Source: Alphaproteobacteria bacterium (GTDB lineage Bacteria > Pseudomonadota > Alphaproteobacteria > Rhodospirillales > WMHbin7). From it: a stretch of DNA of 64,000 bases. Positions within the stretch are counted from its first letter, which is position 1. Each line of letters begins with the position of its first letter. The notes beneath the pieces are model-generated. The model was not told where the DNA came from, did no database searches, and worked only from the letters and a program-made list of their open reading frames with translations. This document shows positions 1 to 25,608 of the stretch, piece after piece. Location: NCBI GenBank assembly GCA_015232335.1, contig JADFZV010000014.1, positions 253-64,252 of the forward strand. The letters run 5' to 3'. A program made the translations under genes and the position numbers.

Positions 1-501
1 TGTGCGACGGAGTTGCAAATTTGAGCAGTGGCAACCTAGCCTGCATGTTCGGTCAGCTTTCCATATCTAGCGTTTTTGCTATAGCCCCTAATGTAAGGGA
101 AGGCTCTACTATGCTTACTATTCCAAACTTTTTCGGCTGGGCACTCAGCAAGGCGGGGACGAGTTCGTCAGAACACAAGGGCTCTGAGCTAAGAGAATGA
201 GCATGCGTCGGCTACTGGCATTGGGTCAAAGCTCTTTCGCCCTTGATATAGAGACCTGCCAATGCCACTGACAACACAAGACAACCCGCTCTTCCAAGCG
301 CAAGGGGTTGATGTGTCAAATCTGTTGAGTTTGCTGGAAAATGGCCTACCCTAGTCCTTATAGTAGAGGGGGGTAGACCTGTACGCTAATTTCCAAAATA
401 TCCCCATAAATGCGTTTCACGCCTTTTAGTGAGTGTTGCAGATGTCGCTAACTTTTTCACGGTTTGCTTCTAACGAGTCCGTTAACGGCAATCTATTCCA
501 G

Positions 502-1497
502 ATGTTTGAGGGTGCCAGCGTTCTGGTGACCGGAGCCACCGGGTCTTTCGGTCGAGCTTTTATCGCCAGGCTGCTGCAAGACTACAAGCCGGCGCGGCTC
601 GTTGTTTTCTCGCGCGACGAACTGAAGCAGCATGAAATGCAGGTCAGCCGCGTTTTCTTAAACCGCCCGGAGATTCGCTATTTTATCGGCGACGTCCGCG
701 ATGTTGGCAGATTACGCATGGCCATGCGAGGCGTTGATTACGTTGTACATGCCGCCGCCTTGAAGCAGATAACAACGGCCGAGTATAATCCTCTCGAATG
801 CGTCCATACCAACATTATGGGGGCAGAAAACGTTGTGACGGCAGCCATTGACTGTGGCATAAAGCGAGTAATTGCGCTTTCGACCGATAAAGCCGTAAAT
901 CCAGTCAGCCTCTACGGGGCGACTAAGTTGGCCTCGGATAAAATTTTCATCGCAGCCAATAATATTGCAGGTCCCACAAGAACTCGTTTCTCCGTGGTCC
1001 GCTACGGCAATGTCGCAGGCTCGCGAGGCAGCGTCGTCCCCCTATTCCGCCGCATGATTGCAGAGGGAGCGTCTGAGCTGCCTATCACCGACGAGAGAAT
1101 GACACGCTTTTGGATTACATTGGACGAAGGCGTGGACTTTGTTCTTTCCTGTTTTCATTTGATGCATGGTGGCGAGATATTCGTTCCTAAAATTCCAAGC
1201 CTGAGCGTTGTTGATCTCGCTAAGATTATGGCCCCCGAACTGCCGCACCGAATTGTTGGCATTCGCCCCGGTGAGAAGCTTCACGAAGTCATGATTACCG
1301 AGGAGGATTCGCCGGTAACCTTTGATTTGGGAGATCGGTATGTCATCGAGCCCACGATCAACTTCTGGAATCGGCCCAGTTTTGCCGAGTCAAATTACCC
1401 CTTGGTTTCGCCGGATTTCAGATATGCCAGCAACATGAATACACAGTGGCTGGATGAGAAGGCGACTCGCGACATTATTTCCGCCTGTGCTGACTGA
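502..1497 (+). CDS. pseB: UDP-N-acetylglucosamine 4,6-dehydratase (inverting), PseB
   Basis: GATGSFG Rossmann motif, FSRDELKQ, VHAAALKQ, ALSTDKAVNPVSLYGATK (YxxxK), RYGNVAGSRGSVVP, TRFWITL, GIRPGEKLHE. ORF track starts at GTG 433; ATG 502 (MFEGASVLVTG) fits the family N-terminus better. Confidence 0.93.
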   Translation: MFEGASVLVTGATGSFGRAFIARLLQDYKPARLVVFSRDELKQHEMQVSRVFLNRPEIRYFIGDVRDVGRLRMAMRGVDYVVHAAALKQITTAEYNPLECVHTNIMGAENVVTAAIDCGIKRVIALSTDKAVNPVSLYGATKLASDKIFIAANNIAGPTRTRFSVVRYGNVAGSRGSVVPLFRRMIAEGASELPITDERMTRFWITLDEGVDFVLSCFHLMHGGEIFVPKIPSLSVVDLAKIMAPELPHRIVGIRPGEKLHEVMITEEDSPVTFDLGDRYVIEPTINFWNRPSFAESNYPLVSPDFRYASNMNTQWLDEKATRDIISACAD

Positions 1498-1505
1498 AAC
1501 TTGCA

Positions 1506-2720
1506 ATGACCCATTCAAGTGATGACCGATTTCTACCCTATGCCCGCCAAGACCTGGACGCCTCTGATATTGCTGCGGTTGTTGATGTTCTTAACTCGGA
1601 TTGGCTTACTCAAGGCCCAAAAGTCCCCGAGTTCGAGTGTGCCATCGCCGAACGCGTCGGCTCAAATTTCGGCGTGGCGATGTCATCTGGTACTGCCGCG
1701 CTTCACGCCGCTTGCATAACAGCTGGGCTAGGGCCAGATGATGAGATAATCACCTCGCCCATTACATTTGCAGCAAGCGGTAATTGCGCCTTGTATGCAG
1801 GGGCGAATGTTCGTTTTGCCGATATCCGACAAGACACCTACTGTATCGACCCGCAGAAGATTATTGACGCGATTACCCCCCGAACCAAAGTCATTATTCC
1901 TGTCGACTTTACAGGCCAGCCTTGCGATCTTGATGAAATCTCTGGCATTGCCAGAAGGAGTGGGCTTGTCGTTATTGAAGACGCGGCTCACGCGCTGGGG
2001 GCAACCTATCGCGATCGCAGCGTCGGATCTCTTGCTGACATGACCGTTTTCTCCTTTCACCCTGTCAAGCATGTCGCAGCGGGTGAGGGCGGCCTTGTTG
2101 CAACGAATGACGGTGCCTTTGATGCTGCTCTTCGACTGTTTCGCTCTCACGGTATTTCCAACGCAGAAAACTCGATGACCCTGCCTGATCAGGCGGCAGA
2201 TAACGAGGGCATTCCAGCAGAGCGCGCTAATCCACCGGGAAAGGCCGGGTGGTATTATGAAATGCTCACTTTAGGCTATAATTACCGAATTACAGACATG
2301 CAGTGCGCTCTTGGCCTCTCGCAGCTAGCGCGGCTTGACTCCTTTATCGAGCGTCGCCGAAGAATTGCCCAACGCTATACAGAGGCATTTTCCCAATCGC
2401 AGCTACTGTCTGTACCAACGCAGCTTTCAGACCGTCAGAGCGCCTGGCATTTGTACGTTCTTTCCCTTCGGCTGAAGAAGATGGAGAAAACAAGGCGGCG
2501 CGTATTTGATGAGCTGAGGGCAATGGGAATTGGCGTTCACGTACACTACATTCCGCTTCACCTCCAGCCATACTACCGTAAACGTTTTGGCTACAAGCGC
2601 GGAGACTTTCCTGTTGCCGAGGCCTATTATGACAGCGCCTTGACCATTCCCCTTTTTCCAGCGATGTCAGATATCGACGTCGAAAGGGTTATCAAATCTG
2701 TTCTTCAGGTTGTTCAGTAA
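1506..2720 (+). CDS. pseC: PLP-dependent sugar aminotransferase, PseC (DegT/DnrJ family)
   Basis: LPYARQ, SDWLTQGPKV, SSGTAALH, IIPVDFTGQP, IEDAAHALGA, FSFHPVKH (PLP lysine), GEGG, GYNYRITD, VHYIPLHLQPYY; directly follows pseB. Confidence 0.9.
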   Translation: MTHSSDDRFLPYARQDLDASDIAAVVDVLNSDWLTQGPKVPEFECAIAERVGSNFGVAMSSGTAALHAACITAGLGPDDEIITSPITFAASGNCALYAGANVRFADIRQDTYCIDPQKIIDAITPRTKVIIPVDFTGQPCDLDEISGIARRSGLVVIEDAAHALGATYRDRSVGSLADMTVFSFHPVKHVAAGEGGLVATNDGAFDAALRLFRSHGISNAENSMTLPDQAADNEGIPAERANPPGKAGWYYEMLTLGYNYRITDMQCALGLSQLARLDSFIERRRRIAQRYTEAFSQSQLLSVPTQLSDRQSAWHLYVLSLRLKKMEKTRRRVFDELRAMGIGVHVHYIPLHLQPYYRKRFGYKRGDFPVAEAYYDSALTIPLFPAMSDIDVERVIKSVLQVVQ

Positions 2721-2724
2721 TCAT

Positions 2725-4443
2725 ATGACTGCGAATTCACTCGGGAAAAACGCACCCCCTCGCTTTTACCAGCGCTTCATTGGCGGTGTCGTTCAGAATC
2801 ATGACTGGCCGCGCATAACCACGCAACTTAGTGGGGCACAGTTTCAGCCGCGCGACGCTGGGCTTAATTTCCTGATTATCAACGCCCCCATCCGTGAATG
2901 GTCTCAACCAAATATTCTGCCCTTGGGACAAAGTTTTGTCGGTGCAGTTTCTGTCATGGATGGCCATCGTTTGCATGTGCTGGACCTTAACGCCATGCGA
3001 CAGAGGCCGATCAGAGACAATCCCCAGGCCTTTACAAGCTGGGTGCTTGAGAAGCTAACAGAATGTTTGTCTTCCTTTAGGCCAGACGTTATTGGCATCG
3101 GCGGCATTATCACACAGTATGCCCGCATCAAGCGCATGACCGAGCAGTGCAAGCGAATTCACCCGGATATTCCGATTATTTTAGGTGGCGGCATTGCAAC
3201 CTGTATGCCGGAGTTTATGCTTCGGCGCCTGGACATCGATATCGTCGTGCGCGAGGAAGGTGAGCTGACGATATCAGAATTGCTGGAGAGAATTGAATTG
3301 GCCCAGCCGCTTGACGGCATCAAAGGCACACTTTTCAAACGCTACAACGGAGACGGATCTTTCGACATCGTAGACAACGGCATCCGCCCACAAATTGGAG
3401 GTCGCGAGCTAGGGTTAGACGCCTTACCCTGGCCCTTGCGCTCGCGTTGGCCTGAGGAAGATGTTTACAAGCATAATCCGATTGGACATCTGAACTGGCA
3501 GAATAAGTGGAAGGACGGTGCCGCCACTGATGCAGGATCCTATTCCCTGGCCATGCTCGGCTCGCGCGGTTGTCCCTATGCGGTTAATGCCTGTGATTAT
3601 TGCTATACGACCTATCTTGGCCCCAAGTACCGGCTCAGAAGCCCTCGCGAGGTGGTCAACGAGATGGAGGCTCTGAAGAGTGAGTACGGCGTGAACTATC
3701 TGCACTTTCTCGACGATCTGCTGATTGCCAACCCTAAATGGGCCTACGAACTTTTCGACGAGCTGAAATTGCGCAGGCGCCAGACTGGTTTCAAGATTGA
3801 GTGGGGTGGAACCTGCCGGACGAATATAATCGCCGCTGAGGTATTGAAGGCCAGAAAGAGTGGCGCCCCATCCATTCTTGAACGCGCCTATGAGGTCGGC
3901 ATGCGCCAAGCTGGCTATGGCGTGGAAACAGGCAGTCCCACCATATTAAAGTCTATAGACAAATCGGGACAGACTGTCGATGCAATCCGTGTCGCCATAG
4001 GCGAAACCATTCGTGTGTTTGGCTATGCTGATTGCTCCTTTATGATTGGATCGCCTGGAGAGACCCGGGAGACTGTTCGGGAGACAGTAGAGTTATGTAA
4101 GGAAATTGGCCTTGCCCCTGAGGTTTTTTTCTTCACAACGGCCTATCCCGGCACCACCTTCTGGCAGCTCGCTCTCAAGAAGGGATTGGTGGCAAAAGCC
4201 GTTACCGGAAAGCCAGGCCCTGCTGACGAAGACATGATCGAGGAGTATTGCATGCGTCTTGGCGAGCAGGGTGATGCCGTAAGAACCAACTTCAGTGACT
4301 TGCCAGACGAGGAAATTGTCGAACTCTCCTGGTGGGCTGTGAAGGAGCTTGGGGCACAGAACGTTTACAGGCATCCCCATACGGGCGATATCGAGCCCGA
4401 GAGATCCCCTCTTGTCAGGGGAGCCAACGATGCCTCTTTATGA
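2725..4443 (+). CDS. Cobalamin-dependent (class B) radical SAM protein with non-canonical Cys spacing
   Basis: N-terminal B12-binding-like domain (PDVIGIGGII, PIILGGGIAT, VVREEGE); SRGCPYAVNACDYC; HFLDD, GYGVETGS, FMIGSPGET, AYPGT. Confidence 0.85.
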   Translation: MTANSLGKNAPPRFYQRFIGGVVQNHDWPRITTQLSGAQFQPRDAGLNFLIINAPIREWSQPNILPLGQSFVGAVSVMDGHRLHVLDLNAMRQRPIRDNPQAFTSWVLEKLTECLSSFRPDVIGIGGIITQYARIKRMTEQCKRIHPDIPIILGGGIATCMPEFMLRRLDIDIVVREEGELTISELLERIELAQPLDGIKGTLFKRYNGDGSFDIVDNGIRPQIGGRELGLDALPWPLRSRWPEEDVYKHNPIGHLNWQNKWKDGAATDAGSYSLAMLGSRGCPYAVNACDYCYTTYLGPKYRLRSPREVVNEMEALKSEYGVNYLHFLDDLLIANPKWAYELFDELKLRRRQTGFKIEWGGTCRTNIIAAEVLKARKSGAPSILERAYEVGMRQAGYGVETGSPTILKSIDKSGQTVDAIRVAIGETIRVFGYADCSFMIGSPGETRETVRETVELCKEIGLAPEVFFFTTAYPGTTFWQLALKKGLVAKAVTGKPGPADEDMIEEYCMRLGEQGDAVRTNFSDLPDEEIVELSWWAVKELGAQNVYRHPHTGDIEPERSPLVRGANDASL

Positions 4444-5164
4444 CAAGTCTGGCCAGAGACGAAGTGTTGTTGGCCTTATTCCCGCAAGGGGAGGCAGCAA
4501 GGGCCTTCCCCGCAAGAATGTGCTCCCAATTGCTGGAAAGCCTTTGATTGGTTATGTAATCGAAGCTGCACAGGCCTCGCGACTGCTGGATCTTGTCGTT
4601 GTCTCAACCGACGATGAGGAAATTGCAAAGGTCGCTCGCAGTTTTGGGGTGCGTGTCATCGATCGCCCAGCTGAGTTTGCAACCGACACCGCCCCAATTG
4701 ATTTGGCATTACGGCATGTCGTGAGTGTTCTCGAGCGCGAAGGTCATGCCGTCGATGTTGTGGTCTGGCTGCAAGCAAATGTGCCAACAACATCCCCCGA
4801 GGTCATCGATCAGGCCGTCAGCCTTATGCTAGAGGAGGATTGTGACAGCGTACAGACTGTTGTTCCATTTCAAATCCCTCCGCAATGGGCTTGGCGCCTT
4901 GACGGCAATCGACTCTTGCCACTTGAAGGTTGCTACAAATATACGGTTCGCAGACAAGATGCTGTTGAGGCGTACCATCTTGATGGAGCAATCAACGTTT
5001 TGAAGCGCACAATTCTGATGAATACGGAGGGTCAGCAAGGCCAGGCATACTTCGGAACTGATCGCCGCGCGCTTGTCCAGAGTCCTCACTCGAATATCGA
5101 AGTTGACGGACAAGTGGACTATGACTATGCCTGTTATTTATTTGAGCGTCGACAATTCAAGTGA
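4430..5164 (+). CDS. pseF: Acylneuraminate cytidylyltransferase (CMP-pseudaminic acid synthetase, PseF/NeuA family)
   Basis: GLIPARGGSKGLPRKNVLPIAGKPLI, VVVSTDDEEIA, RPAEFATD, RRQD, IEVDGQVD; sits inside the pse operon; ATG 4430 overlaps the end of the upstream gene. Confidence 0.85.
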   Translation: MPLYDKSGQRRSVVGLIPARGGSKGLPRKNVLPIAGKPLIGYVIEAAQASRLLDLVVVSTDDEEIAKVARSFGVRVIDRPAEFATDTAPIDLALRHVVSVLEREGHAVDVVVWLQANVPTTSPEVIDQAVSLMLEEDCDSVQTVVPFQIPPQWAWRLDGNRLLPLEGCYKYTVRRQDAVEAYHLDGAINVLKRTILMNTEGQQGQAYFGTDRRALVQSPHSNIEVDGQVDYDYACYLFERRQFK

Positions 5165-6672
5165 CTACAAATGCTTCCAGGCATTGCGTAATCCGGGCTG
5201 ATGCATCGGCGCAGCTCGGTGGCGGGCACATCCTGCGCTGCCTGGTGCTTGCAGACGCACTGACCTCTTATGGCTGGAAGTGCTCCTTTGCCACCAGAGA
5301 GACGTCGCTAGGTGCTGTGAGGCGGCTTCAATATTCTGGGCACGAGATCGTAATCCTTCGAAGTGACGAGCAGCATGAGGCCGACGAGATTCTGGCGGCG
5401 TTCTTGCAAGGATGCGATCTTCTGATTGTCGATCATTACCATAGAGGCAAAGCGTTTGAGCAGCAGCTTTGTAAATGGGCACAGAGAATATTTGTTATTG
5501 AAGATTTACTTGACCGCTCTCATCAATGTAATTTTTTGCTTGATCAAACACATTCGGCTCGGCCAGCTGAGATGAGTATTTCTTCTGTAGGCTGCCAACT
5601 TGTCGGTCAGGAATTCGCACTGTTGCGCCGCAGCTTCTCTATTGCCCGTTTGGCCGGCCCCGTCTCAGGGAGAATCTTTCCTCCTCGCAGAATTCTGATC
5701 CAGACCGGACTAAGCGATTTGGCTGGACTGGCAGTTCCTTTAACTTTAGCCGCAAGAGCCGCCTTTCCTGATGCCTTGCTGGCTGTCGTGCTAGGGTCAA
5801 TGGCCGCTTCGCTGAGTGAGATTCGCCAAATTTCTCAGTGTAGTCCCGGGTCTGTTGCGCTTTATATTGACGAAGAACACATGGACGATCAGATGAGGAA
5901 TGCAGACCTTATGCTGGGCGCCGCCGGAAGCTCTTGCTGGGAGGCTTGCTGTCTGGGATTGCCAATGGCGCTGGTACAGGTTGCCGAGAATCAGCAGCCT
6001 GTCATCGAGCTGCTGACACAAAGAGGTGCGGCTATTTGCTTAGGCACAGCTAGCGATATTTTGTCTTGCCCGGACGACATTATTGGAAAGTTGACTTCGT
6101 TGACAGCAGAGCATCTGATGAATTTCTCGACCCAATCCAGCCGGATCTGCGACGGACTAGGTGTCAACCGCGTTCTATTGACTTTGCTGCCGGAATTGAC
6201 GACGGCTCGCACTGCGATAACGTTGCGACCTGTTCAACCTGGCGATTCAAGTTTGCTTTTTCAATGGCAGGTGGACCCATCGACAAGAAGGTTTTTCAGG
6301 GATCCGTCAGTTCCCACTGCCGAACTGCACGCATCCTGGTTCTCTGACCGCTTGGCATCGGACAAGGGGCCGTTTTGTCTTATTATGCACTTAGACCAGC
6401 CTGTTGGGGTCATCCGGCTTGATAGACTTGATAGCGCAAGACGAGATAAATTTGTCCCTGCCTTTGAAGTGTCTCTTATCATTTCTCCCGAGGAGCGCGG
6501 AAAGGGTATTGGATCCGCCGCCTTGCGTGCCGCTTGTCGGCTGGTTGATGGTGTCGATGTTGTGGCTCATATCTTCAGCCAGAATGAGCCCTCAATTGCC
6601 GCATTTGCCAGTGCCGGATTCTTGCCCGATGGCAGCGACTGGTTTCGACTAAAGGCGCGTGATCATGGTTAG
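5161..6672 (+). CDS. pseG: PseG hydrolase fused to a C-terminal GNAT acetyltransferase (PseH-like)
   Basis: IRADASAQLGGGHILRCLVLA, LLIVDHY, AAGSSCWEACCLGLP, VAENQ in the first ~340 aa; then TLRPV...GVIRLD...SLIISPEERGKGIGSAAL...NEPSIAAFASAGF (GNAT fold). Confidence 0.85.
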   Translation: MTTNASRHCVIRADASAQLGGGHILRCLVLADALTSYGWKCSFATRETSLGAVRRLQYSGHEIVILRSDEQHEADEILAAFLQGCDLLIVDHYHRGKAFEQQLCKWAQRIFVIEDLLDRSHQCNFLLDQTHSARPAEMSISSVGCQLVGQEFALLRRSFSIARLAGPVSGRIFPPRRILIQTGLSDLAGLAVPLTLAARAAFPDALLAVVLGSMAASLSEIRQISQCSPGSVALYIDEEHMDDQMRNADLMLGAAGSSCWEACCLGLPMALVQVAENQQPVIELLTQRGAAICLGTASDILSCPDDIIGKLTSLTAEHLMNFSTQSSRICDGLGVNRVLLTLLPELTTARTAITLRPVQPGDSSLLFQWQVDPSTRRFFRDPSVPTAELHASWFSDRLASDKGPFCLIMHLDQPVGVIRLDRLDSARRDKFVPAFEVSLIISPEERGKGIGSAALRAACRLVDGVDVVAHIFSQNEPSIAAFASAGFLPDGSDWFRLKARDHG

Positions 6673-7345
6673 AGCAGTAGTGGCAACGATAAAGCCCTGG
6701 AATGTCGACATCTACAAGAAGAGCGTTTCACGTTTTCCTGGCGATTGGCGCCTTGTCCAAAGCCCGGAAGAGCTGACTGCCGACTTTATTGACAGCTTCA
6801 GGCCGGATTATGTCTTTTTTCCCCACTGGTCTTTGCGTGTGCCGGATTGGCTGCTTGGGCAGACGCAGTGTGTATGCTTCCATATGACTGACGTTCCCTT
6901 TGGCCGCGGTGGATCACCATTACAGAATTTGATTGTGCGGGGTGTTTCAACAACCATCGTCAGCGCCTTAAAGATGGTTCCTCAAATGGATGCAGGTCCT
7001 GTCTATCTCAAGCGGCCTCTGCCGTTGGAGGGAAGAGCCCAGGACATATATGAGAGGTGCGGTCTATTGGTCTTCGACATGATCGAGGAAATCGTCCGCA
7101 CCAAACCGGTGCCTGTCGAGCAGACAGGCCCCATTACCGTCTTTAGTCGACGCACACCTGATGAGAGCCTCTTGCCGACCGATGGGAATCAGAAATCTCT
7201 TTACGATCACATTCGAATGTTAGACGCTGATACTTATCCGCCCGCTTTTCTGGAATGGGGGAATCTCCGGCTGGAGTTCACGCACGCACAGCCAGAACGC
7301 GACGGAGTAGCTGCCCGGGTGTTCATCAGAAGAAGAGAGACCTAA
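6665..7345 (+). CDS. Formyltransferase-family protein (methionyl-tRNA formyltransferase-like)
   Basis: PDYVFFPHWS, CVCFHMTDVPFGRGGSPLQNLI, MDAGPVYLK, YDHIRMLDADTYPPAFLE. Confidence 0.75.
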   Translation: MVRAVVATIKPWNVDIYKKSVSRFPGDWRLVQSPEELTADFIDSFRPDYVFFPHWSLRVPDWLLGQTQCVCFHMTDVPFGRGGSPLQNLIVRGVSTTIVSALKMVPQMDAGPVYLKRPLPLEGRAQDIYERCGLLVFDMIEEIVRTKPVPVEQTGPITVFSRRTPDESLLPTDGNQKSLYDHIRMLDADTYPPAFLEWGNLRLEFTHAQPERDGVAARVFIRRRET

Positions 7346-7348
7346 CGA

Positions 7349-8044
7349 ATGGTAGGGACAGTTCTTGTTGTTGCGGCCCACCCCGATGATGAAATGCTTG
7401 GATGCGCGGGCACACTTGCTCGTCACATTGCAGCTGGCGCTCAAGTGAACTTGCTTTTTCTTGCGGAGGGAGGAGACAGCGCCCGCCTAGATAAAACCGA
7501 CAGCCAAGGCCGCGCGAAGAGCATTGCGTCAATTACCCTGGCAGCTCAGAGGGCGGCCGCGCTTCTTAATGCAAGCCCCCCACAGTTTCTCTCTTTACCT
7601 GACAACCGCATGGATGAGTTGCCGTTGTTGGAAGTTGTTAAATCGCTTGAAAGCGCGATTTCATCGATCAACCCTTCGATTATTTACACGCACCATGCTC
7701 ATGATCTGAACATTGATCATCGCATTACCCATCAGGCTGTGCTTACCGCCTGTCGTCCTACTCCATGCTCTAATGTCGAAGCCATTTATGCCTTTGAGGT
7801 TTTGTCCAGCACGGGCTGGGCATCACCCACCCCCGCAGAGGCATTCCTGCCCAATAGATTTGTTGATATATCGCCGTATCTTGAGAAGAAGAAGGAACTT
7901 CTGGGCTGCTATGCCGATGAGATGAGAGCATTTCCGCACGCCAGATCCCTAGAGGCCATTGATGCCCTAGCCCACCTGAGAGGTGCACAGGCTGGATTTT
8001 CAGCGGCGGAAGCCTTTATGATCGTCCGGGAGCGGGTGTGGTGA
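7349..8044 (+). CDS. PIG-L/LmbE family N-deacetylase
   Basis: VVAAHPDDEMLGCAGTLARH, LPDNRMD, IYTHHAHDLNIDHRIT, FLPNRFVDIS, EAFM. Confidence 0.9.
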   Translation: MVGTVLVVAAHPDDEMLGCAGTLARHIAAGAQVNLLFLAEGGDSARLDKTDSQGRAKSIASITLAAQRAAALLNASPPQFLSLPDNRMDELPLLEVVKSLESAISSINPSIIYTHHAHDLNIDHRITHQAVLTACRPTPCSNVEAIYAFEVLSSTGWASPTPAEAFLPNRFVDISPYLEKKKELLGCYADEMRAFPHARSLEAIDALAHLRGAQAGFSAAEAFMIVRERVW

Positions 8045-9093
8045 CAATTGGAGGCATCACGATTGACGGGCGTTCCCTAAGTTCTGAGCTTCCCCCTTAT
8101 ATTGTTGCCGAGTTGTGCGCCAATCATAACGGCAGCCTGGAGCGTGCCCTCTCTATCATTGAAGCGGCCAAGGCAGCCGGTGCCGATGCTGTCAAGCTGC
8201 AGACATACACGCCCGATACGATGACAATTGATAGCAGCAACCCCGAGTTCCTTTTAAAGGGTGGGCTCTGGGACGGCTATCGCCTGTATGAGCTTTATCA
8301 AAAGGCTTATACCCCCTGGGAATGGCATGAGGCGCTTTTCGCCAAAGGCAGGGAAGTTGGCATTACCGTTTTCAGTACCCCCTTTGACGAGACAGCAGTC
8401 GATTTTCTCGAGCAATTCAGCCCTCCCGCCTACAAAATCGCCTCGTTTGAGTTGATTGATATTCCCCTTATCCAGAAGGCCGCCTCGACGGGCAAGCCTA
8501 TCATTCTTTCCACCGGAAACGGATCGGAGCTTGAAATATTATCCGCGCTAGATGCCTGTCGTGGCAGCGGCGCCCCCGATGTTATTCTGCTTCACTGCGT
8601 CAGCGCCTATCCTGCACCTGCGGAGGAAAGCAATCTTCGTGCAATTTTTTATCTTCGCGAACGTTTCGGAACGCAGATCGGCCTATCGGACCATACGCTG
8701 GGAACCGCTGTCTCCATTGCAGCAACGGCGCTTGGTGTCTGCATGATTGAGAAACACTTTACACTCGACAAGGCACAGGAAGATATTGACGGACCCTTCT
8801 CAATCGAGCCTCATGAATTGAGCCGCTTGGTTCAAGACACGAAAATTGCCTGGAGTTGCCTGGGAAGCGGCCGCCTCGATCGTGCTCCTTCTGAAGGAGC
8901 AATGAAGCAATTCAGGCGTTCCTTGTACACAGTTGCCGATATTGCAGAAGGTGAAGTCTTTTCTCGCGACAACATTCGGTCAATAAGACCGGGGAATGGA
9001 CTTTCTCCTGCCCATTTACCAGAGATTATTGGCCGAAGGGCAAAGAAGAGCATTATGCGCGGCACGCCACTCGCCTGGGAACTTGTGCTTTGA
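8038..9093 (+). CDS. pseI: Pseudaminic acid synthase PseI with C-terminal SAF/antifreeze-like domain
   Basis: IVAELCANHNGSLERA, VKLQTYTPDTMTIDS, YKIASFE, LLHCVSAYPAP, GLSDHTLG, IEKHFTLDK, FRRSLY, IRSIRPGNGL. Confidence 0.92.
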   Translation: MVTIGGITIDGRSLSSELPPYIVAELCANHNGSLERALSIIEAAKAAGADAVKLQTYTPDTMTIDSSNPEFLLKGGLWDGYRLYELYQKAYTPWEWHEALFAKGREVGITVFSTPFDETAVDFLEQFSPPAYKIASFELIDIPLIQKAASTGKPIILSTGNGSELEILSALDACRGSGAPDVILLHCVSAYPAPAEESNLRAIFYLRERFGTQIGLSDHTLGTAVSIAATALGVCMIEKHFTLDKAQEDIDGPFSIEPHELSRLVQDTKIAWSCLGSGRLDRAPSEGAMKQFRRSLYTVADIAEGEVFSRDNIRSIRPGNGLSPAHLPEIIGRRAKKSIMRGTPLAWELVL

Positions 9094-10958
9094 GCATCAC
9101 CCCTGCACCACAAGCACCTGCCGCGAGTTCTGGTGTTTCCGTTTTTTCTTTGCTTCGTCAATATTCCAAGCCGTATTGGAAGAGCATCGCTTTAACGATA
9201 GTTCTCAGCTTGCTGGGAACAACTCTGGCCTCGCTAATGCCCCTCGTTATGGCACCCATTCTTGATATTGCTATGGGCAGAAAACCGCTATTTTCCCAAG
9301 GTGCGGGCGGGGTTACATGGCTTGATTTTGACCTGAACAACGCTGGTCAGATCATCATGTCCTATATGAACGCGTCAGAGAGCAACTCATTTCACCTGAT
9401 TGTTCTACTAAGTGCACTCTTTTTTGCCGCATCGCTTGTGTCAAATTTCTTGATATTTCTCTCACAGTTTACGGGTAGAAGCATTCAGGCGAGAACGGCG
9501 CGCGATCTTCAAAACCATCTCTTTTCGCATATTCTTAGCTTGCCGATGTCCTTTTTCTACGCCAGACGGTCGGGCGAGTTGATTTCATGTTTAGAGCGCG
9601 ATACTGGCGCCACGACATCCGGCATGGATAAAATTTCTCGCTATCTTATCACAGCCCCCTTGCAGATTGCCTTTTATGCTTATTTGCTGGTGAAGACGAA
9701 TGTATCTCTCGCACTCGTTGCTCTTCTTTCATCCGTAGCTCACTACGCCATTACCAAATCACTCAGTGGCCGCGTGAAGCGTTCTGTTCGAGACCAATAC
9801 TCTATTTACGCCGATCAGTCAGTACGCCTTCAGGAGGCCATTCTCGGCATTCGGCTGGTCAAATCCTATGCTGCAGAGAATTTTGAAATTCGCAAGTTCC
9901 GCGAGCTATCTTCGAGGCTAGTTTTTTCAACGCTTCGTCAATTTGTATATGAAAACATTCAAGACCCTCTTCGTGCGCTTACAAACCAGTTTGTCTTGTT
10001 GTTTATTCTCGTTTTTTCAGCGTACGAAATGCTGAATGGCCGAATGGAACCAACTGGCTTTTTGCTGTTCATTTACATTGGACAGCGACTTGTCGGGTCT
10101 ATCAAGCTTTTGGGTGATACACTTGCTACGATGCAAGTGACGGCGGCAACGGCGGAAAGGCTTGTCGAGCTTTTGAGGTTACGTCCACGCCTGAAGGGCG
10201 GGCATCAGACGATTGACAGTTTTCAGACATCAATCAAGCTTGAGAATGTCTCCTTTTCCTATCAGGACACAGATGTCCTCACTGATATAAGTCTTGAGAT
10301 CAGGCGCGGTGAAATGCTGGCAATCGTTGGCCCCAGCGGAGCTGGCAAGTCGACTTTTGTCGATCTTATCTTGCGCTTGCATGATCCCCAGCAGGGCTGC
10401 ATCAGCATCGACGGCACGGATATTCGAAGCTTCCGTTTGGAATCCTTACGAAGGTTGTTTGGCGTCGTTTCTCAGGAGACAACTCTCTTCAACACCTCAG
10501 TATTCGATAACATTGCATATGGCAGAGATGGCTTGACAGAGGCCGAAGTCCACAAGGCGATGGAAATGGCCAACGCCGTTGATTTCATTGCTTCGCTCCC
10601 TCAAGGCCTTCAGACATTGATCGGAGATCGCGGCGTTCGGCTTTCCGGTGGACAAAGACAGCGGCTAGCCATAGCGCGCGCTGTTGCAGCATCTCCTCAG
10701 ATTCTTGTCATGGACGAAGCGACAAGTGCACTCGACAGCGAGTCTGAAAATCTGGTTCAAGAGGCCATTGACCGCGTTATTAAGGATTCGACGGCTATTG
10801 TCATTGCCCACCGACTGTCCACTGTCATGCATGCCACCAGGATTGTTGTGCTTGATCAGGGACGCATTGTTGATATTGGTACGCACGAGGCACTTCTTGG
10901 TCGCTGTGCGCTTTATGCCCGATTATGTTCGCACCAGTTTGTCGACCCCACGCCTTAG
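9090..10958 (+). CDS. ABC exporter, fused TMD-NBD (MsbA/PglK-like)
   Basis: Hydrophobic N-terminal TMD; Walker A GPSGAGKST, Q-loop VVSQE, signature LSGGQRQR, Walker B ILVMDEATSALD, IAHRLST. Confidence 0.92.
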   Translation: MSITPAPQAPAASSGVSVFSLLRQYSKPYWKSIALTIVLSLLGTTLASLMPLVMAPILDIAMGRKPLFSQGAGGVTWLDFDLNNAGQIIMSYMNASESNSFHLIVLLSALFFAASLVSNFLIFLSQFTGRSIQARTARDLQNHLFSHILSLPMSFFYARRSGELISCLERDTGATTSGMDKISRYLITAPLQIAFYAYLLVKTNVSLALVALLSSVAHYAITKSLSGRVKRSVRDQYSIYADQSVRLQEAILGIRLVKSYAAENFEIRKFRELSSRLVFSTLRQFVYENIQDPLRALTNQFVLLFILVFSAYEMLNGRMEPTGFLLFIYIGQRLVGSIKLLGDTLATMQVTAATAERLVELLRLRPRLKGGHQTIDSFQTSIKLENVSFSYQDTDVLTDISLEIRRGEMLAIVGPSGAGKSTFVDLILRLHDPQQGCISIDGTDIRSFRLESLRRLFGVVSQETTLFNTSVFDNIAYGRDGLTEAEVHKAMEMANAVDFIASLPQGLQTLIGDRGVRLSGGQRQRLAIARAVAASPQILVMDEATSALDSESENLVQEAIDRVIKDSTAIVIAHRLSTVMHATRIVVLDQGRIVDIGTHEALLGRCALYARLCSHQFVDPTP

Positions 10959-10964
10959 CTTGAC

Positions 10965-11975
10965 ATGTGCCCAAGACCCCTCCTTAGCGTTGTCATGGCT
11001 GTCCGCAATGGCGCTAAGTTCCTGCAGGAGACATTGGACAGCCTTAAGACTCAGAGCTTCAAGGATTTTGAGCTGATTGTTGTTGACGACGCTTCCACCG
11101 ACGGGTCGTCTGCTATTCTTGCGGCCTGCGAGGGGCTTGAGATACGTCTGCTGAAGAACGATTCCTCCAGAGGACTTGCCTATTCGCTGAACAGGGGAAT
11201 CGACGAATCGAAAGGCGTTTTTATCGCCCGCCAGGACGCTGATGATCTTGCTCTCCCGGATAGATTTGCAAATCAACTAGCCACATTGAAGGCCAACTCA
11301 CGCCTCGTTTTGCTGGGATCTGCCTACGATGTGATTGATGTTCAGTCGAAAGTCGTCGAATCGCAACGTCAGCCTCTTGATGATCGCTCCATCCGCTGGC
11401 AAATGTTGTTTCACAATGCTTTCTGTCATAGTACGGTGATGTTCCCCCGCAAGGCCATTGACCAACCTCTTTTGCGCTATGATGAGGCAAAGCCCTTTGC
11501 CCAGGATTACGGCTTATGGTCACAGCTGATAAAACGTGGCGAGGTCGCTAATCTTAGAAAGCCTTTGCTGGCTCTTCGCCTTCACGATTCCAGCATGTCG
11601 GCTACGGGCAAGCTCAACCAGCAAACCATTGCGGATAAGATTGCTGCCGAGAATATGTCGGCGCTCTTGGGATACAGCCCCCCGGCTTTGCACGTTCACC
11701 TGCTGCGGTCCTGGTATTATGGACTGCCTGAATCATTAGGAACAGACGGCCAGGCAGCCCTTATGCTTGCTTTAGAGCTCTTGCGCGCCTTCGGCCATTG
11801 CGGTCAAGAGGACTTATGGGCAGAGCGCATTCTTTGTCATTCAGATACGCACTATTGGCCCTTTGCTAAGGCCTTGATTACGCTTGCGCCCTCTGCCTTC
11901 GTCAAGTCAAGTTTCAAGCGTTTATTGCGACATTCAACTGCCAGGCCTGATCGCGTCAGATCTTTTGAACCATGA
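10965..11975 (+). CDS. Glycosyltransferase family 2
   Basis: LSVVMAVRNG, FELIVVDDASTDGS, GLAYSLNRGI, FIARQDADD, QDYGLW. Confidence 0.9.
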   Translation: MCPRPLLSVVMAVRNGAKFLQETLDSLKTQSFKDFELIVVDDASTDGSSAILAACEGLEIRLLKNDSSRGLAYSLNRGIDESKGVFIARQDADDLALPDRFANQLATLKANSRLVLLGSAYDVIDVQSKVVESQRQPLDDRSIRWQMLFHNAFCHSTVMFPRKAIDQPLLRYDEAKPFAQDYGLWSQLIKRGEVANLRKPLLALRLHDSSMSATGKLNQQTIADKIAAENMSALLGYSPPALHVHLLRSWYYGLPESLGTDGQAALMLALELLRAFGHCGQEDLWAERILCHSDTHYWPFAKALITLAPSAFVKSSFKRLLRHSTARPDRVRSFEP

Positions 11976-13156
11976 CTGATCCGAAAAAGCGCGTTGCCGT
12001 TGTTGCGCCAAGCTTTCCACCTTCAAAGGCCGGTGGTGTGGCTTCCTCGCATGAACGGCTTGCTTCACTATTGGAGAAGAGTGGCTGCCAAGTGCGCCGT
12101 TTTGCCTTTCTTGACGGACATCTTTCAAGTGATGCTGTCTTTAGGGCATGTGCGTCAGATAGGTGGAAGCGCACGATTGACACGCTGAGCACCCTTTTTT
12201 TCCGACTGGCTGACCCCTCCGGGCGCGCCTATCAGACTTCCGATATTCTCAAATCCTTGCCCGGGGCAAGGCGGCTGAAGCGCGGGATTTTGGATTTCGC
12301 ACCGCATGAAATTATTCTGCCTGATCACGGATGTCCTGGGCTCGGCCTTGGCGCCTTTCCTTCATCTTCCAGAGTCACGCTAGTCGCACACCATAACCCG
12401 ATGCGCTTTGTAAACTGTCCTGGCTTGAATTCGCACTCTCCTTTGGATGCAAAAATTGCCGTTGCGCTTGAGAATTTCTCTCTTTCTAATATTCATCGCG
12501 TCATAGCGCCCTGCCACTATATGGCTGCCGAATTTAGGCAGACGTATAGATTTTCTGGTGACCTTGCCATTATTCCCAATTTAATCGACATTGCCGAGCT
12601 TGATGCGATATCACCGCTTGATCCACGTCGGGAAATGGGGCTCGCACCACAGGCCCCCTTGATTTATATTCCCTCTGCTGGCAGCAGAATAAAGGGCTCG
12701 GCTATGCTGCCAGAGCTGATAAGGCGAATCGCAGACTTATATCAAGATCCCTTTGGCTTATATCTTTCTGGGTCAGTTTCAGAGCAATTGGTCCATCAAC
12801 TGCCCAACCACATTCCTGTCTTCACTCCCGGCCATTTACCCGTGGATACGAATCTTGCTTACGTAAAATCATGCTCTTTTGCCTTATCTCCCACGCTTGT
12901 GGAAAATTTTAGCATGGCGCTACTTGAAGTACAGATGATGGGGCTAGCTGTCGTAACCTTCGATATTGGTGGTAATCGGGAGTTGGTTTCAGTTGGACAG
13001 ACAGGCTTTATCGTTGCACCTTTTGATGTCGTGTCCATGGCCGGAAAGGCTTCAGAACTCTTGTTAAATCAGACACTCTTTCCAACACCTATGCTTAAAT
13101 CACTCTGTCGGGCGCGCTTTGATCCCGACCGTTGGCTTCCACTGTGGGTAAACTAG
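11972..13156 (+). CDS. Glycosyltransferase family 4 (GT-B)
   Basis: VAVVAPSFPP..AGGVAS, IAPCHYMA, IKGSAML, ENFSMALLEVQMMGLAVVTFDIGGNRELV. Confidence 0.8.
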   Translation: MTDPKKRVAVVAPSFPPSKAGGVASSHERLASLLEKSGCQVRRFAFLDGHLSSDAVFRACASDRWKRTIDTLSTLFFRLADPSGRAYQTSDILKSLPGARRLKRGILDFAPHEIILPDHGCPGLGLGAFPSSSRVTLVAHHNPMRFVNCPGLNSHSPLDAKIAVALENFSLSNIHRVIAPCHYMAAEFRQTYRFSGDLAIIPNLIDIAELDAISPLDPRREMGLAPQAPLIYIPSAGSRIKGSAMLPELIRRIADLYQDPFGLYLSGSVSEQLVHQLPNHIPVFTPGHLPVDTNLAYVKSCSFALSPTLVENFSMALLEVQMMGLAVVTFDIGGNRELVSVGQTGFIVAPFDVVSMAGKASELLLNQTLFPTPMLKSLCRARFDPDRWLPLWVN

Positions 13157-13158
13157 AT

Positions 13159-13932
13159 ATGTTAAAGCCTTTGATACATCGCCTTTTGCGTAAGTTTGGC
13201 TATGAGTTGACTCCAAGGCAGGGACGCAGCTCCCTTTACGGTGTTCTAGTAAACGCTAAAAGGAATGGATTTGCCCCAGCCGGAGTTATTGATGTCGGAG
13301 CTGGCCGGGGAGATTTCACGCGACTATCCCATGACTTGTTTTCGCAGGCGAGGTATCTGATGATAGAGCCTTTGGACGAGTTTGATTCTAAGCTTTCAGA
13401 CGTATCCAGGGCAATTCCAAATGCACTTCGAGTCAAGGCCGTAGCTGCAAGTGCTAGCGGCTCTCGAATGTTCAATATTCACCCTGATCTTTTTGGATCA
13501 TCTCTTCTTTTCGAGGATGAAGCGACGAATGTCAACGGAACCCCCCGCGAGGTTCTTGCGCAAAGGCTTGAGGGGCTCGTTGGCGATGCAGGCCTTCCTG
13601 CCCCATTTCTTCTTAAGATCGACGTTCAAGGTGCAGAGATCGAGGTTCTTTCTGGCGCTGAGGCAATTTTGGATCAGTGTTCTATGATCATTCTGGAGAC
13701 CTCGCTTTTTAAATTTTTCGATGGTGGCCCCCTATTGCATGAAGTCATAGCCTGGATGGAAGCGCGAGATTTCCTACCTTATGACATTTTTGGGCTGGCT
13801 CATCGACCTCTTGATGGCGCCCTTGCGCAGGCTGACATTGTTTTCGTCCCATTGCACAGCGACCTGCGTCGGCATCACCATTACGCAACCGCCTCACAGC
13901 GAGCCAACCTGACAGAGAGGTTGCGCTCTTGA
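13159..13932 (+). CDS. FkbM family O-methyltransferase
   Basis: VIDVGAGRG, LMIEPL, LLKIDVQGAEIEVLSGA, QADIVF. Confidence 0.88.
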   Translation: MLKPLIHRLLRKFGYELTPRQGRSSLYGVLVNAKRNGFAPAGVIDVGAGRGDFTRLSHDLFSQARYLMIEPLDEFDSKLSDVSRAIPNALRVKAVAASASGSRMFNIHPDLFGSSLLFEDEATNVNGTPREVLAQRLEGLVGDAGLPAPFLLKIDVQGAEIEVLSGAEAILDQCSMIILETSLFKFFDGGPLLHEVIAWMEARDFLPYDIFGLAHRPLDGALAQADIVFVPLHSDLRRHHHYATASQRANLTERLRS

Positions 13933-14756
13933 TTTCAATTTCACTCGTCACGCCCAGCTACAACAAGGCGCCCTTTCTTGAAGCGGCCCTGCGCTCTGTT
14001 TTGGACCAGAATTATCCCAACCTCGAGTATGTTGTTGTTGATGGCGGCTCACAGGATGGATCCATCAATATTCTTGAGCGCTACCGCGCAAGGTTGAGCC
14101 ATCTAGTCATTGAGCCGGATGGCGGAATGTATGATGCCTTGGCCAAGGGCTTTGCTCAAACTCGTGGCGACGTAATGGGGTATTTAGGGGCTGACGATCT
14201 TCATATGCCCTGGACGCTTTCCGTCATTGGAGAGATTTTTGATTCCTTTCCAAAGATTGATTGGATAACCACAATGTATCCCCTCACGGTCGATAAATTC
14301 GGTCGAGTGATAAGGGCCAGATGCCTGCCCCCTCCATCTAGCAGGTCGTTTTGGCGGGGGGCCAACCTGCCTGGCTTTTCTTGGTGGTCGAATGGATGGC
14401 TTCAACAAGAATCAACATTCTGGCGTCGCAGAGTATGGGAACGATCAGGCGGGTTTGATACATCCTTGCGCTGGGCAGGCGACTTTGATTTGTGGTGTCG
14501 CTTTATGAAGTTGTCTGACCCGGTATCTGTCGCCGCCCCCTTGGCTGCATTCCGCCGACATGGGGAGCAAATCAGCGCAACCCAGGCTGAGGGCTATAAG
14601 CACGAAGCCCTTTTGACATTCAAGCGCCATGGCGGCATGGAGGGAGGGCGCATCGTCTCACGAATGAGGGAGATGAAACGAAGGGTGGGCCTGAAGCAGG
14701 GCGGCTCTGCACTGCATTATGATTCTATTTCAGAATCCTGGCATTTTTCTTTTTGA
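13929..14756 (+). CDS. Glycosyltransferase family 2 (WcaE-like)
   Basis: ISLVTPSYN, YVVVDGGSQDGS, EPDGGMYDALAKG, YLGADD, QESTFWRR, AGDFDLW. Confidence 0.9.
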   Translation: MISISLVTPSYNKAPFLEAALRSVLDQNYPNLEYVVVDGGSQDGSINILERYRARLSHLVIEPDGGMYDALAKGFAQTRGDVMGYLGADDLHMPWTLSVIGEIFDSFPKIDWITTMYPLTVDKFGRVIRARCLPPPSSRSFWRGANLPGFSWWSNGWLQQESTFWRRRVWERSGGFDTSLRWAGDFDLWCRFMKLSDPVSVAAPLAAFRRHGEQISATQAEGYKHEALLTFKRHGGMEGGRIVSRMREMKRRVGLKQGGSALHYDSISESWHFSF

Positions 14757-14763
14757 GATTAAG

Positions 14764-16008
14764 TTGAAGCCCTGGTTGACAAACACCCTGCTGGTTTTTA
14801 CGGCGACCCTGGTTTCACTTGTCGCTTTCGAAGCGGTCCTTAGGCTTTCAGGCTCACAGTGGGAGCGCGAGCGATCTCTGTTTGCTGAACCACCGCCGCG
14901 CCCGCGCTATACCCAGCTTCCTGATGGCCTTTATCAACTTTCCCCAACCCAGCGCCTGCTGAATTCCGGGATCTGTTTTGAATCCATTTCTGTCGCCACC
15001 AATGCTGTGGGATTTCGAGGCCTGAAGGACTGGCCTGCCGAAGGAGGACTCCTGCTGCTGGGCGATTCGTTTATTGAAGCCCTTCAGGTGCCTGATGGAT
15101 TGACAGTTGCGGATGTCCTTGAGCGTCAAACGGGAAGGCCTGTCCTTAATGCAGGCGTTAGCGGCTTTGGAACAGTTGCCGAGCTGCGTCTTTGGAGGGC
15201 CGCCCTGCAGATCAGACGTCCGGAGGCGGTTATCCTCTTTTTTTACCTGGGCAATGACGTTGCTGACAACTCCTGTGCCCTGACTAGCAGCCGAGCACCC
15301 TGCTCCAATGAGAGCAAACCGCCTGTGAATGTTTCCCCTTCTTCTCGCCTCCCAAGCAATGAAACTGTGGGCAATTCTGGCGGCGGTTGGTGGCCCTATT
15401 TGCGACGTCATTTGGCTCTATATTCATTTATGCATGATGCCCGAATGATTTTTGAAGGCTTTGTTTCTGCCAAGACACCCATACGCTGGAATCTCTATGC
15501 AAACCCTTTAGACCCACAGTGGGAGAGCGCCTGGGCTGAGACGGAAATAGCTCTTGATCTTTTAAGCAACGAGATCGGAGCAACTGGATCAAAACTTTTT
15601 CTTGTTGCCATCCCCGAGCATTTGGCGGTGGCTGACAATCCAGAAAGAATGCTTCGATTTTCTTCGGGAGCCAAGCCCCCTATCGGCTTTGATCCGGAAA
15701 GCCCATCTCGCCGTCTTATGGATATTGCGGCGCGATTGAACATCCCCGCCCTCGATCTTTTGCCGATCTTCAAGGCCTACCGTCAACGCCACAATCTGCC
15801 ATCTCCATATTTCTCCTATTCGTGCGATGGTCACTGGAACCCCCTTGGCCACCATCTCGCAGCAACCGCTGTCTCAGATTTTCTTGGATATGGAAGCAGG
15901 CTATCCCAGGTGATGGCTTCTCCCTCTCGCCAGATTCTGGGAGAAGCCGCCTTTCAGGAAATTTATGTAGGCGGCATATACAGGCCTACTATAAGGGCAG
16001 CTGAATGA
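14764..16008 (+). CDS. Membrane-anchored SGNH/GDSL-fold protein (acyltransferase or esterase) #1
   Basis: N-terminal TM helix; LLLGDSFIEA (block I Ser), VLNAGVSGFGT, GNDVADN, DGHWNPLGH (DxH). TTG 14764 preferred because the track start at 14719 overlaps the upstream gene. Confidence 0.78.
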   Translation: MKPWLTNTLLVFTATLVSLVAFEAVLRLSGSQWERERSLFAEPPPRPRYTQLPDGLYQLSPTQRLLNSGICFESISVATNAVGFRGLKDWPAEGGLLLLGDSFIEALQVPDGLTVADVLERQTGRPVLNAGVSGFGTVAELRLWRAALQIRRPEAVILFFYLGNDVADNSCALTSSRAPCSNESKPPVNVSPSSRLPSNETVGNSGGGWWPYLRRHLALYSFMHDARMIFEGFVSAKTPIRWNLYANPLDPQWESAWAETEIALDLLSNEIGATGSKLFLVAIPEHLAVADNPERMLRFSSGAKPPIGFDPESPSRRLMDIAARLNIPALDLLPIFKAYRQRHNLPSPYFSYSCDGHWNPLGHHLAATAVSDFLGYGSRLSQVMASPSRQILGEAAFQEIYVGGIYRPTIRAAE

Positions 16009-17757: not shown

Positions 17758-17838
17758 GGATCAGGTTGACGTGGACGCGCAAAGTACTTACCAACATCCT
17801 TTTAGATGGTCGCCCTGTCAAGCGCGAGGTAAGGTTTT

Positions 17839-18753: not shown

Positions 18754-18771
18754 GGCCGAGTTCCCCACGTC

Positions 18772-25601: not shown

Positions 25602-25608
25602 CTGCGCC

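Follow-up and report, generated by a model that had tools for sequence, protein, structure and literature searches.

The DNA examined here is a 64,000-nt stretch (the window, in whose positions coordinates are given) of contig JADFZV010000014.1 from an alphaproteobacterial genome assembly. The window starts with a closely packed row of co-oriented + strand genes: pseB, pseC, a gene for a radical S-adenosylmethionine (radical SAM) protein with a B12-binding domain, a pseF-like cytidylyltransferase gene, pseG fused to a GNAT domain, a formyltransferase-like gene, a PIG-L gene, pseI, an ATP-binding cassette (ABC) exporter gene and glycosyltransferase genes (Table 1). The pse genes belong to the pathway for pseudaminic acid (Pse), a nonulosonic acid (NulO). 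To our knowledge, NulO biosynthesis is entirely polar chemistry and no radical step is known in the Pse pathway. The subject of this analysis is the radical SAM gene that lies among these pse genes.

Table 1. Features of the pse row and of the remaining glycan island, in window positions.
Feature	Position	Strand	Evidence or remark
pseB, UDP-GlcNAc 4,6-dehydratase (inverting)	433-1497	+	TIGR03589, 512 bits (cut-off 408); PF02719
pseC, aminotransferase	1506-2720	+	TIGR03588, 485 bits (cut-off 424); PF01041
B12-binding-domain radical SAM protein, 572 aa	2725-4443	+	PF02310 and PF04055 above gathering scores
Non-canonical [4Fe-4S] motif C283-x6-C290-x2-C293 (SRGCPYAVNACDYCY)	3571-3603	+	three Cys invariant in 31 aligned family members
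PseF-like cytidylyltransferase (non-canonical CMP-NulO synthetase)	4430-5164	+	PF02348; TIGR03584, 132 bits (cut-off 205.7)
PseG (UDP-sugar hydrolase) fused to C-terminal GNAT	5161-6672	+	TIGR03590, 194 bits (cut-off 154), residues 9-282; GNAT Pfam match, residues 353-487
Formyltransferase-like protein	6659-7345	+	PF21553, 64 bits; weak ArnA and Fmt NCBIfam matches
PIG-L family de-N-acetylase	7349-8044	+	PF02585, 92 bits
pseI, pseudaminic acid synthase	8038-9093	+	TIGR03586, 483 bits (cut-off 340)
MsbA/PglK/HepA-like ABC exporter, translationally coupled to pseI	9090-10958	+	PF00664 and PF00005
Glycan-assembly genes: glycosyltransferase family 2 (GT2), family 4 (GT4), FkbM methyltransferase, GT2, SGNH/AlgX-like	10965-16008	+	Pfam; part of the duplicated module, same order after the second copy on contig C11
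Second ulosonic-acid module	25582-28266		three open reading frames (ORFs)
Weak cytidylyltransferase-like ORF of the second module	25582-26274		below Pfam cut-offs
Unannotated 356-aa ORF of the second module			
NeuB-domain protein without SAF domain, 243 aa	27535-28266		PF03102, 155 bits
Further radical SAM gene	30827-32392		Radical_SAM Pfam match only; follows an AMP-binding enzyme and an AAC(3)-fold acyltransferase
PMT_2-family (ArnT/PMT-like) membrane glycosyltransferase and weak YfhO-like membrane protein	34765-36432 and 44537-46714		
TylC3/NovU-type sugar C-methyltransferase	39971-41200		PF08421, PF08484
Further B12-binding and Radical_SAM gene	49176-50828		Pfam

Every junction on this strand from position 433 to approximately 16000 is either an overlap or a gap of 8 nt or less. 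Four bases (tcat) separate the pseC stop codon (TAA, 2718-2720) from the radical SAM start codon (ATG, 2725), and the radical SAM stop codon (TGA, 4441-4443) lies beyond the cytidylyltransferase start codon (ATG, 4430), producing a 14-nt overlap. The cytidylyltransferase stop codon (5164) in turn overlaps the GTG start codon (5161) of pseG-GNAT. The mechanical ORF start of the radical SAM frame is an in-frame TTG at 2710, but the N-termini of homologues favor the ATG at 2725. Promoter-like and terminator-like sites were no more common than in shuffled sequence. Because those signals do not rise above shuffled controls and the case is made by gene packing, we infer an operon rather than report one.

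PseB, PseC, PseG and PseI of the window all exceed their equivalog cut-offs and are shared with the canonical Pse pathway of Helicobacter and Campylobacter (PseB-C-H-G-I-F). The GNAT domain fused to PseG scored 23 bits against the PseH model TIGR03585 (cut-off 93) and is a presumed PseH substitute, while the cytidylyltransferase scored below the PseF equivalog cut-off. Compared to the canonical pathway, the window therefore adds the radical SAM, PIG-L and formyltransferase-like genes and carries a GNAT domain for PseH and a sub-cut-off cytidylyltransferase for PseF. All six canonical functions appear to be encoded in this way, so the radical enzyme would add a step to the pathway and replace none. 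A preliminary description of the locus, made from its sequence, had placed the radical SAM gene 4 nt past the pseC stop with its end overlapping the start of the next gene, and both the ORF map and a reading of the sequence agree with this exactly. It had also named the downstream gene pseF, which holds as far as a PseF-like cytidylyltransferase but not a canonical PseF. PseH is represented by a weak GNAT domain, and PIG-L and the formyltransferase-like gene are two further non-canonical members of the cluster.

The radical SAM protein matches the B12-binding domain PF02310 over residues 71-191 (56 bits, gathering score 32.1) and the Radical_SAM domain PF04055 over residues 285-463 (57 bits, gathering score 29.5). 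No curated NCBIfam model came near its cut-off for this protein, the best being HpnJ (94.7 versus 577.6 bits). It scored below the cut-offs of the named B12-binding radical SAM equivalogs (HpnJ, BchE, ApyD, BzaD and the ladderane radical SAM protein) and far below those of the named methylase models (PhpK 66/600, HpnR 55/650, KedN5 33/700 bits). Across 31 aligned family members, drawn from many phyla, mean column identity is 73% and the sequence SRGC-PYAxxA-C-DY-C is invariant, i.e., CX6CX2C is found in place of CX3CX2C. The three cysteines occupy the position expected of a cluster motif, with only their spacing changed. The blocks NPxGHLNW and, at the C-terminus, RHPHTG are also invariant, and an N-terminal extension is conserved. 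The other B12-binding radical SAM paralogues inspected have CX3CX2C; variant cysteine spacings are known within the radical SAM superfamily.

The departure from CX3CX2C raises the idea that the gene is an inactive relic with an iron-sulfur motif spoiled by a three-residue insertion. However, the three cysteines of CX6CX2C are invariant in 31 of 31 aligned members, the gene is the slowest-evolving of its clusters, and its frame is intact in both copies carried by the source genome and in 20 other genomes. This conservation of motif, rate and frame effectively refutes the relic reading, which we regard as having almost no chance of being correct.

A structural model (AlphaFold, AF2) built on the family alignment had a predicted local distance difference test score (pLDDT) of 79 and a predicted template modeling score (pTM) of 0.84. 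Foldseek comparison of the model to the PDB returned TsrM as the best match (E 1e-22), followed by OxsB, AprD4, MgmA, CysS and TokK. A profile search matched the B12 domains of TokK, OxsB and TsrM and, for MgmA and AprD4, the radical SAM core, and a direct sequence search of the PDB returned only remote matches. TsrM (6wte), OxsB (5ul4), MgmA (9ccb), CysS (9n1b) and TokK (7kdx) share with the model a Rossmann-type B12-binding domain at the N-terminus, a partial TIM barrel as the radical SAM core and, at the C-terminus, a domain of helices (Foldseek E 1e-22 to 1e-12, probability 1.0). They differ from it in sequence, with 15-18% identity, CX3CX2C rather than CX6CX2C, and neither its N-terminal extension nor RHPHTG. 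They also differ in context, as these five lie in antibiotic, cofactor or methyl-coenzyme M reductase (MCR) modification loci and the window gene lies in NulO operons. By domain architecture and predicted fold, the protein is a class B (cobalamin-type) radical SAM enzyme.

Use of cobalamin by the protein is putative and is indicated by a B12-binding domain above the Pfam cut-off. Such a domain alone is not proof of cobalamin binding, since AprD4 (6fd2), the 1,2-diol dehydratase of the apramycin pathway, has a B12-like N-terminal domain and does not use cobalamin. Genes for CobS and for no fewer than 12 further B12-binding radical SAM paralogues (25-33% identical to the pse-embedded protein) are present in the source genome, so cobalamin is available.

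A search of the protein database returned more than 1700 homologues, the best 120 of which align along the full length at 61-78% identity. Few of these have named sources; those named include Rokubacteria, Chloroflexi, Anaerolineae, Cytophagales, Bathyarchaeia and Euryarchaeota. The family was defined operationally by full-length identity of at least approximately 59%, an invariant CX6CX2C and Pse-type neighbors, all of which are found for the window protein. Members are 59-66% identical across more than 12 phyla, including bacteria of the candidate phyla radiation (CPR) and archaea. A scan of GTDB species genomes yielded 36 loci, from sources that include Rokubacteria/Methylomirabilota, Planctomycetes, Omnitrophota, Chloroflexota, Patescibacteria, Nitrospiria, Terriglobia, Verrucomicrobiota and Delta- and Alphaproteobacteria, in addition to a Pseudomonadales metagenome-assembled genome and the cultured cyanobacterium Lusitaniella coriacea LEGE 07167 (L023).

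At least 34 of the 36 loci encode, within the fetched flanks (10 kb), a protein related to PseB, to PseC, to a NeuB-type synthase or to a cytidylyltransferase. Of the other two, L031 is a 1.2-kb fragment and L011 is a contig with short flanks that show only PIG-L, an oxidoreductase and a cytidylyltransferase-aminotransferase fusion. The gene upstream of the radical SAM gene is often pseC, and the order pseB, pseC, radical SAM, cytidylyltransferase is repeated in many loci and on a metagenomic contig that carries a 75%-identical relative. Since the same pseC-radical SAM-cytidylyltransferase order recurs in unrelated phyla, the linkage, as read from gene order, is far beyond chance. MsbA/PglK-like exporter homologues (39-63% identity) also recur in many of these loci. 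Taken from gene content, dedication of the family to the Pse-type NulO pathway is well supported.

The preliminary description had made the gene a class-B-type radical SAM gene integral to the pse operon. The two domain matches, the tight coupling, and the embedding of orthologues in pse operons at these GTDB loci, on the metagenomic contig and in a second copy within the source genome bear this out. Its wording that the gene is inserted between pseC and pseF, which suggests a local event, does not survive, as the arrangement is an old module that is conserved across phyla and horizontally transferred. C-methylation of a UDP-altrosamine intermediate or CMP-Pse, which it put forward as a possibility, is plausible.

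Two types of downstream neighborhood were found. In 13 loci and the window, the next gene encodes a PseF-like cytidylyltransferase. In approximately 18 loci, it encodes a GFO/Idh/MocA oxidoreductase and is followed by a CTP_transf_3 cytidylyltransferase gene, usually with a class-III aminotransferase fused to or after the cytidylyltransferase (L001, L002, L004-L006, L010-L013, L017, L022, L023, L027-L029, L033-L035). None of nine PseF-like proteins encoded next to the radical SAM gene scored above that of the window (best E 1.9e-38, 132 bits), so all fall under the PseF cut-off. That the adjacent cytidylyltransferases are all sub-PseF is consistent with an altered sugar substrate at the activation step, as far as sequence scores can indicate.

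The rate at which the radical SAM protein evolves also sets it apart within its clusters. Its mean pairwise distance (0.31-0.33) is lower than that of PseB (0.41), PseC (0.51), PseI (0.55) and the PseF-like protein (0.60). Mantel correlations with the radical SAM distances were 0.71 for PseB, 0.66 for the PseF-like protein, 0.41 for PseI and 0.00 for PseC. Paralogous aminotransferases in the loci may be the cause of the null correlation for PseC.

The composition of the loci bears on where such an enzyme would act. An enzyme acting off the sugar backbone could modify the N-acyl side chain, for example by enlarging acetyl to a larger acyl group, or could modify the completed glycan or the lipid or protein that carries it. 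TokK and CysS, both fold matches, extend side-chain alkyl groups, and the window, as a glycan island of 60 kb, also contains numerous methyltransferases, two further radical SAM genes and a carrier-protein cassette. However, glycosyltransferases, carriers and acceptor proteins differ from locus to locus, whereas PseB, PseC, the NeuB-type synthase and the cytidylyltransferase are constant across phyla. The level of identity maintained over bacteria, CPR and archaea likewise argues for a single small, invariant substrate, and we consider an off-backbone role improbable. Because the constant partners are pathway enzymes and identity is held at approximately 60% across domains of life, the substrate is expected to be one small molecule, namely a UDP-hexose intermediate, free Pse or CMP-Pse.

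The protein encoded at 2725-4443 is thus very probably a NulO-pathway tailoring enzyme. Most characterized class B radical SAM enzymes methylate. GenK and GenD1 are B12-binding radical SAM C-methylases that tailor sugars in the gentamicin pathway, and the CMP-linked substrate that Fom3 methylates comes from a neighboring cytidylyltransferase. These three class B enzymes act in sugar or phosphonate pathways on unactivated sp3 carbons. They are likened to the window protein by role only, its candidate substrate being a 5,7-diamino nonulosonic acid or its UDP-hexose precursor. Given the prevalence of methylation in class B and the sugar and CMP-linked precedents, C-methylation is the most probable chemistry, although by analogy it can be assigned only tentatively.

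In the proposed mechanism, the radical SAM protein would be co-translated with PseC and with its dedicated, non-canonical cytidylyltransferase. A 5'-deoxyadenosyl radical together with methylcobalamin would methylate an unactivated carbon in one of the pathway intermediates, for which the candidates are the UDP-4-amino-4,6-dideoxy-N-acetylaltrosamine (AltNAc) stage, free Pse and CMP-Pse. The product would be a C-methylated NulO, either branched or chain-extended. The co-evolved cytidylyltransferase would activate this sugar, and the glycosyltransferases and ABC exporter would put it on a surface glycan. Taken as a whole, the explanation that a cobalamin-type radical SAM enzyme tailors the Pse pathway by C-methylation is, in our judgment, evenly balanced between being right and being wrong.

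Several observations weigh against C-methylation by a cobalamin-dependent enzyme. By sequence, the radical SAM core matches AprD4, a cobalamin-free dehydratase, most strongly, and the best NCBIfam match, HpnJ, is a putative ring-contraction enzyme. The CX6CX2C motif is unusual for a radical SAM protein, and the cluster loop that contains it is weakly modeled (pLDDT below 50, residues 284-297). Magnetospirillum gryphiswaldense MSR-1, the sole strain with reported C10 CMP-ulosonic acids, lacks an orthologue. As to the step, PseG and PseI that score as canonical argue mildly against a change to the hexose before condensation.

Some of these observations would suit other radical chemistry on a NulO intermediate, which could be epimerization at an unactivated carbon to give a new stereoisomer in the Pse, legionaminic acid (Leg) and acinetaminic acid (Aci) series, AprD4-like dehydration or deoxygenation, deamination, or skeleton rearrangement of the OxsB/HpnJ type. 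The B12-like domain would then be structural or cobalamin would be used differently. AprD4 is the top sequence match of the core (E 5e-8), is among the top fold matches (template modeling score, TM, 0.68 to the target), acts on an aminosugar and also has a non-canonical cysteine spacing (CPYPCRFYC). It is, however, cobalamin-free and approximately 120 residues shorter, and its model NF033070 scored 40 bits on the window protein against a cut-off of 500. A GFO-family oxidoreductase adjoins the radical SAM gene downstream in about half of the loci and could reduce or oxidize a keto intermediate made by the radical reaction. AprD3 plays such a role with AprD4. The window cluster, on the other hand, has no adjacent oxidoreductase, and its protein has a PF02310 match above cut-off with an N-terminal domain that matches the true cobalamin binders TokK, OxsB and TsrM. 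No match decides between methylation and other chemistry, since all are remote (15-18% identity). With most characterized class B enzymes being methylases, we regard these other reactions as less likely than methylation, though as a serious rival to it. A GFO-type oxidoreductase and an aminotransferase also work beside the methylase GenD1, and the same trio is present in the approximately 18 GFO-type loci. The grouping of radical SAM, GFO and aminotransferase genes recalls GenD2/GenS2/GenD1 of gentamicin biosynthesis.

Analysis of related genomes was informative as to how the module is distributed. The source genome (3.43 Mb in 89 contigs) has a permuted transfer-messenger RNA (tmRNA) of the alphaproteobacterial kind with the tag ANDNEALAIAA. 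A radical SAM orthologue (E <= 1e-100) was found in one of 401 sampled genomes from 136 genera of the host's order. None was found at this threshold in four genomes of the same genus, in one of the same family, or in the rest of the 401. PseI exceeded its cut-off in 125 of the same 401 genomes, for a radical SAM frequency of 1 in 125 among Pse-capable relatives. In the order of another alphaproteobacterial carrier, the gene was present in one of 244 genomes. This occurrence (1/401 and 1/244, versus 125/401 for PseI) therefore identifies the radical SAM module, on genome content, as a rare accessory that moves horizontally and lies outside the ordinary Pse pathway. Within the genus, other genomes (L054, L055) carry a different NulO cluster, which includes a cytidylyltransferase-aminotransferase fusion, PseG and PseI and lacks the radical SAM gene. 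G+C content is approximately 52% for window positions 1-20000 compared to 59.3% genome-wide. With this low G+C content and the absence of the radical SAM family from the other 400 sampled genomes of the order, the module looks horizontally acquired.

A second, diverged copy of the approximately 14-kb module is present in the source genome on contig C11 (131000-150900; L045), with protein identities of 50-78%. The gene order is that of the window: pseC, radical SAM, pseF-like, pseG-GNAT, formyltransferase-like, PIG-L, pseI, ABC exporter, GT2, GT4, FkbM and GT2. The radical SAM proteins are the best-kept pair (78%) of the 12 duplicated genes. No pseB lies directly upstream of the C11 copy, and a different short-chain dehydrogenase/reductase (SDR) gene occupies its place. 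The 20 other carrier genomes have one copy of the module each.

PIG-L and the formyltransferase-like protein would probably swap the N5-acetyl group, by de-N-acetylation and re-acylation, independently of the radical step. The formyltransferase-like gene adjoins PIG-L in six radical SAM loci, and a hexapeptide acyltransferase is the partner of PIG-L elsewhere in the family; these pairings suggest N5-acetyl exchange. Inspection by eye placed CFH in the formyltransferase-like protein where sugar and tRNA formyltransferases have NxH, and formyl transfer by this protein is uncertain because of that replacement. In Ca. Kuenenia stuttgartiensis (NZ_LT934425.1), CMP-NulOs that carry both a free amine and an N-formyl group, one of each, have been described together with a deacetylase and a formyltransferase amid the NulO genes (bioRxiv 10.64898/2026.04.20.719630). 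For this organism, NulO ions at 261, 275 and 289 are reported. The pairing of deacetylase and formyltransferase matches the logic of the two window genes, although that cluster is described as Leg-type and a radical SAM gene is unmentioned in the text (bioRxiv 10.64898/2026.04.20.719630).

For M. gryphiswaldense, ulosonic acids with an extended, C10-type backbone have been reported, to which no gene has been assigned (Kleikamp et al. 2020, PMC8157484; SugarBase preprint bioRxiv 10.64898/2026.04.20.719630). No CX6CX2C radical SAM orthologue was found in 83 genomes of Magnetospirillum's family, which belongs to the same order as the source genome, the complete genomes of MSR-1 and ME-1 included (best E 3e-36, 31% identity); the best match in MSR-1 itself is 29% identical (E 2e-22). 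With the orthologue missing, the present family does not account for the MSR-1 C10 ulosonic acids and cannot be tied to their chemistry. An assignment of the MSR-1 CMP-sugar masses 679.198, 693.214 and 707.230 to triamino sugars, matching GFO, aminotransferase and radical SAM genes, was also considered and dropped, as the formulae fit acetimidoyl plus O-acetyl groups as well and the MSR-1 island has a HisH/HisF-type amidotransferase.

The MSR-1 Leg-type NulO island (L056, chromosome 3,482,000-3,501,900) does contain a pair of B12-binding radical SAM genes that belong to other families. Their positions are 13336-15471 and 17701-19248 in L056, or about 3,495,335-3,497,470 and 3,499,700-3,501,247 in HG794546. 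They flank a Maf-like gene and follow legI, with which they share a strand, at a distance of 12-16 kb; both products have CX3CX2C. The island otherwise encodes LegC, LegG, LegI, a formyltransferase-like protein, a PtmE-like protein, GFO, LegF, an SDR, the HisF/HisH-type amidotransferase and methyltransferases. In Magnetospirillum sp. ME-1, a B12-binding radical SAM gene lies approximately 2 kb from a NeuB gene, and the source genome of the window carries a 68%-identical orthologue of the second MSR-1 gene together with a 60%-identical Maf (C11, 202816-205322). The extra carbon that lacks an explanation in MSR-1 makes its two genes candidates for that step. NulO islands thus repeatedly contain B12-binding radical SAM genes, from several families, and one such island is that of the sole strain with a measured extra backbone carbon; this backs, by analogy only, the general idea of radical tailoring. 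A full-text search of the paper library used found no radical SAM or cobalamin enzyme linked to Pse, Leg or NulO synthesis. The nearest match was an unannotated radical SAM ORF in some Legionella lipopolysaccharide (LPS) loci.

Further genes of the glycan island are given in Table 1. The two further radical SAM genes are 28-33% identical to the pse-embedded gene over partial alignments. To judge from its sugar C-methyltransferase gene, the island may also make a conventional branched-chain deoxysugar. The PMT_2-family and YfhO-like genes hint that a lipid carrier donates the glycan on the periplasmic side; this would fit the ABC exporter of the pse row.

Flagella, S-layers, capsules and LPS are capped by nonulosonic acids, which influence recognition by both phages and the immune system. 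Described here is a radical SAM family of apparent class-B type in a pathway without a known radical step, along with its two types of downstream module, its non-canonical cytidylyltransferase partner, the rate and co-variation data, its frequency among Pse-capable relatives, the duplication of the module and the negative result for M. gryphiswaldense. It is possible, as a bolder proposal that we would put somewhat below an even balance, that the family is a dedicated Pse-pathway C-methyltransferase producing a branched or C10 ulosonic acid outside the Pse/Leg/Aci/fusaminic acid (Fus) series, that it has its own co-evolved cytidylyltransferase, that it has spread horizontally through more than 12 phyla, and that several families of B12-binding radical SAM genes are the missing genes for higher-carbon ulosonic acids. 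With many orthologues and a cultured cyanobacterial host, the family is a prospective model for class B enzymes with a CX6CX2C motif and a small soluble substrate. If the interpretation is correct, a conserved radical step, probably cobalamin-dependent, would be a new type of reaction in NulO synthesis and would predict a new sugar. It would also provide candidate genes for extended-backbone ulosonic acids that have been seen by mass spectrometry without a genetic basis, and the products would form a class of bacterial "sialic acids" outside the Pse, Leg, Aci and Fus series.

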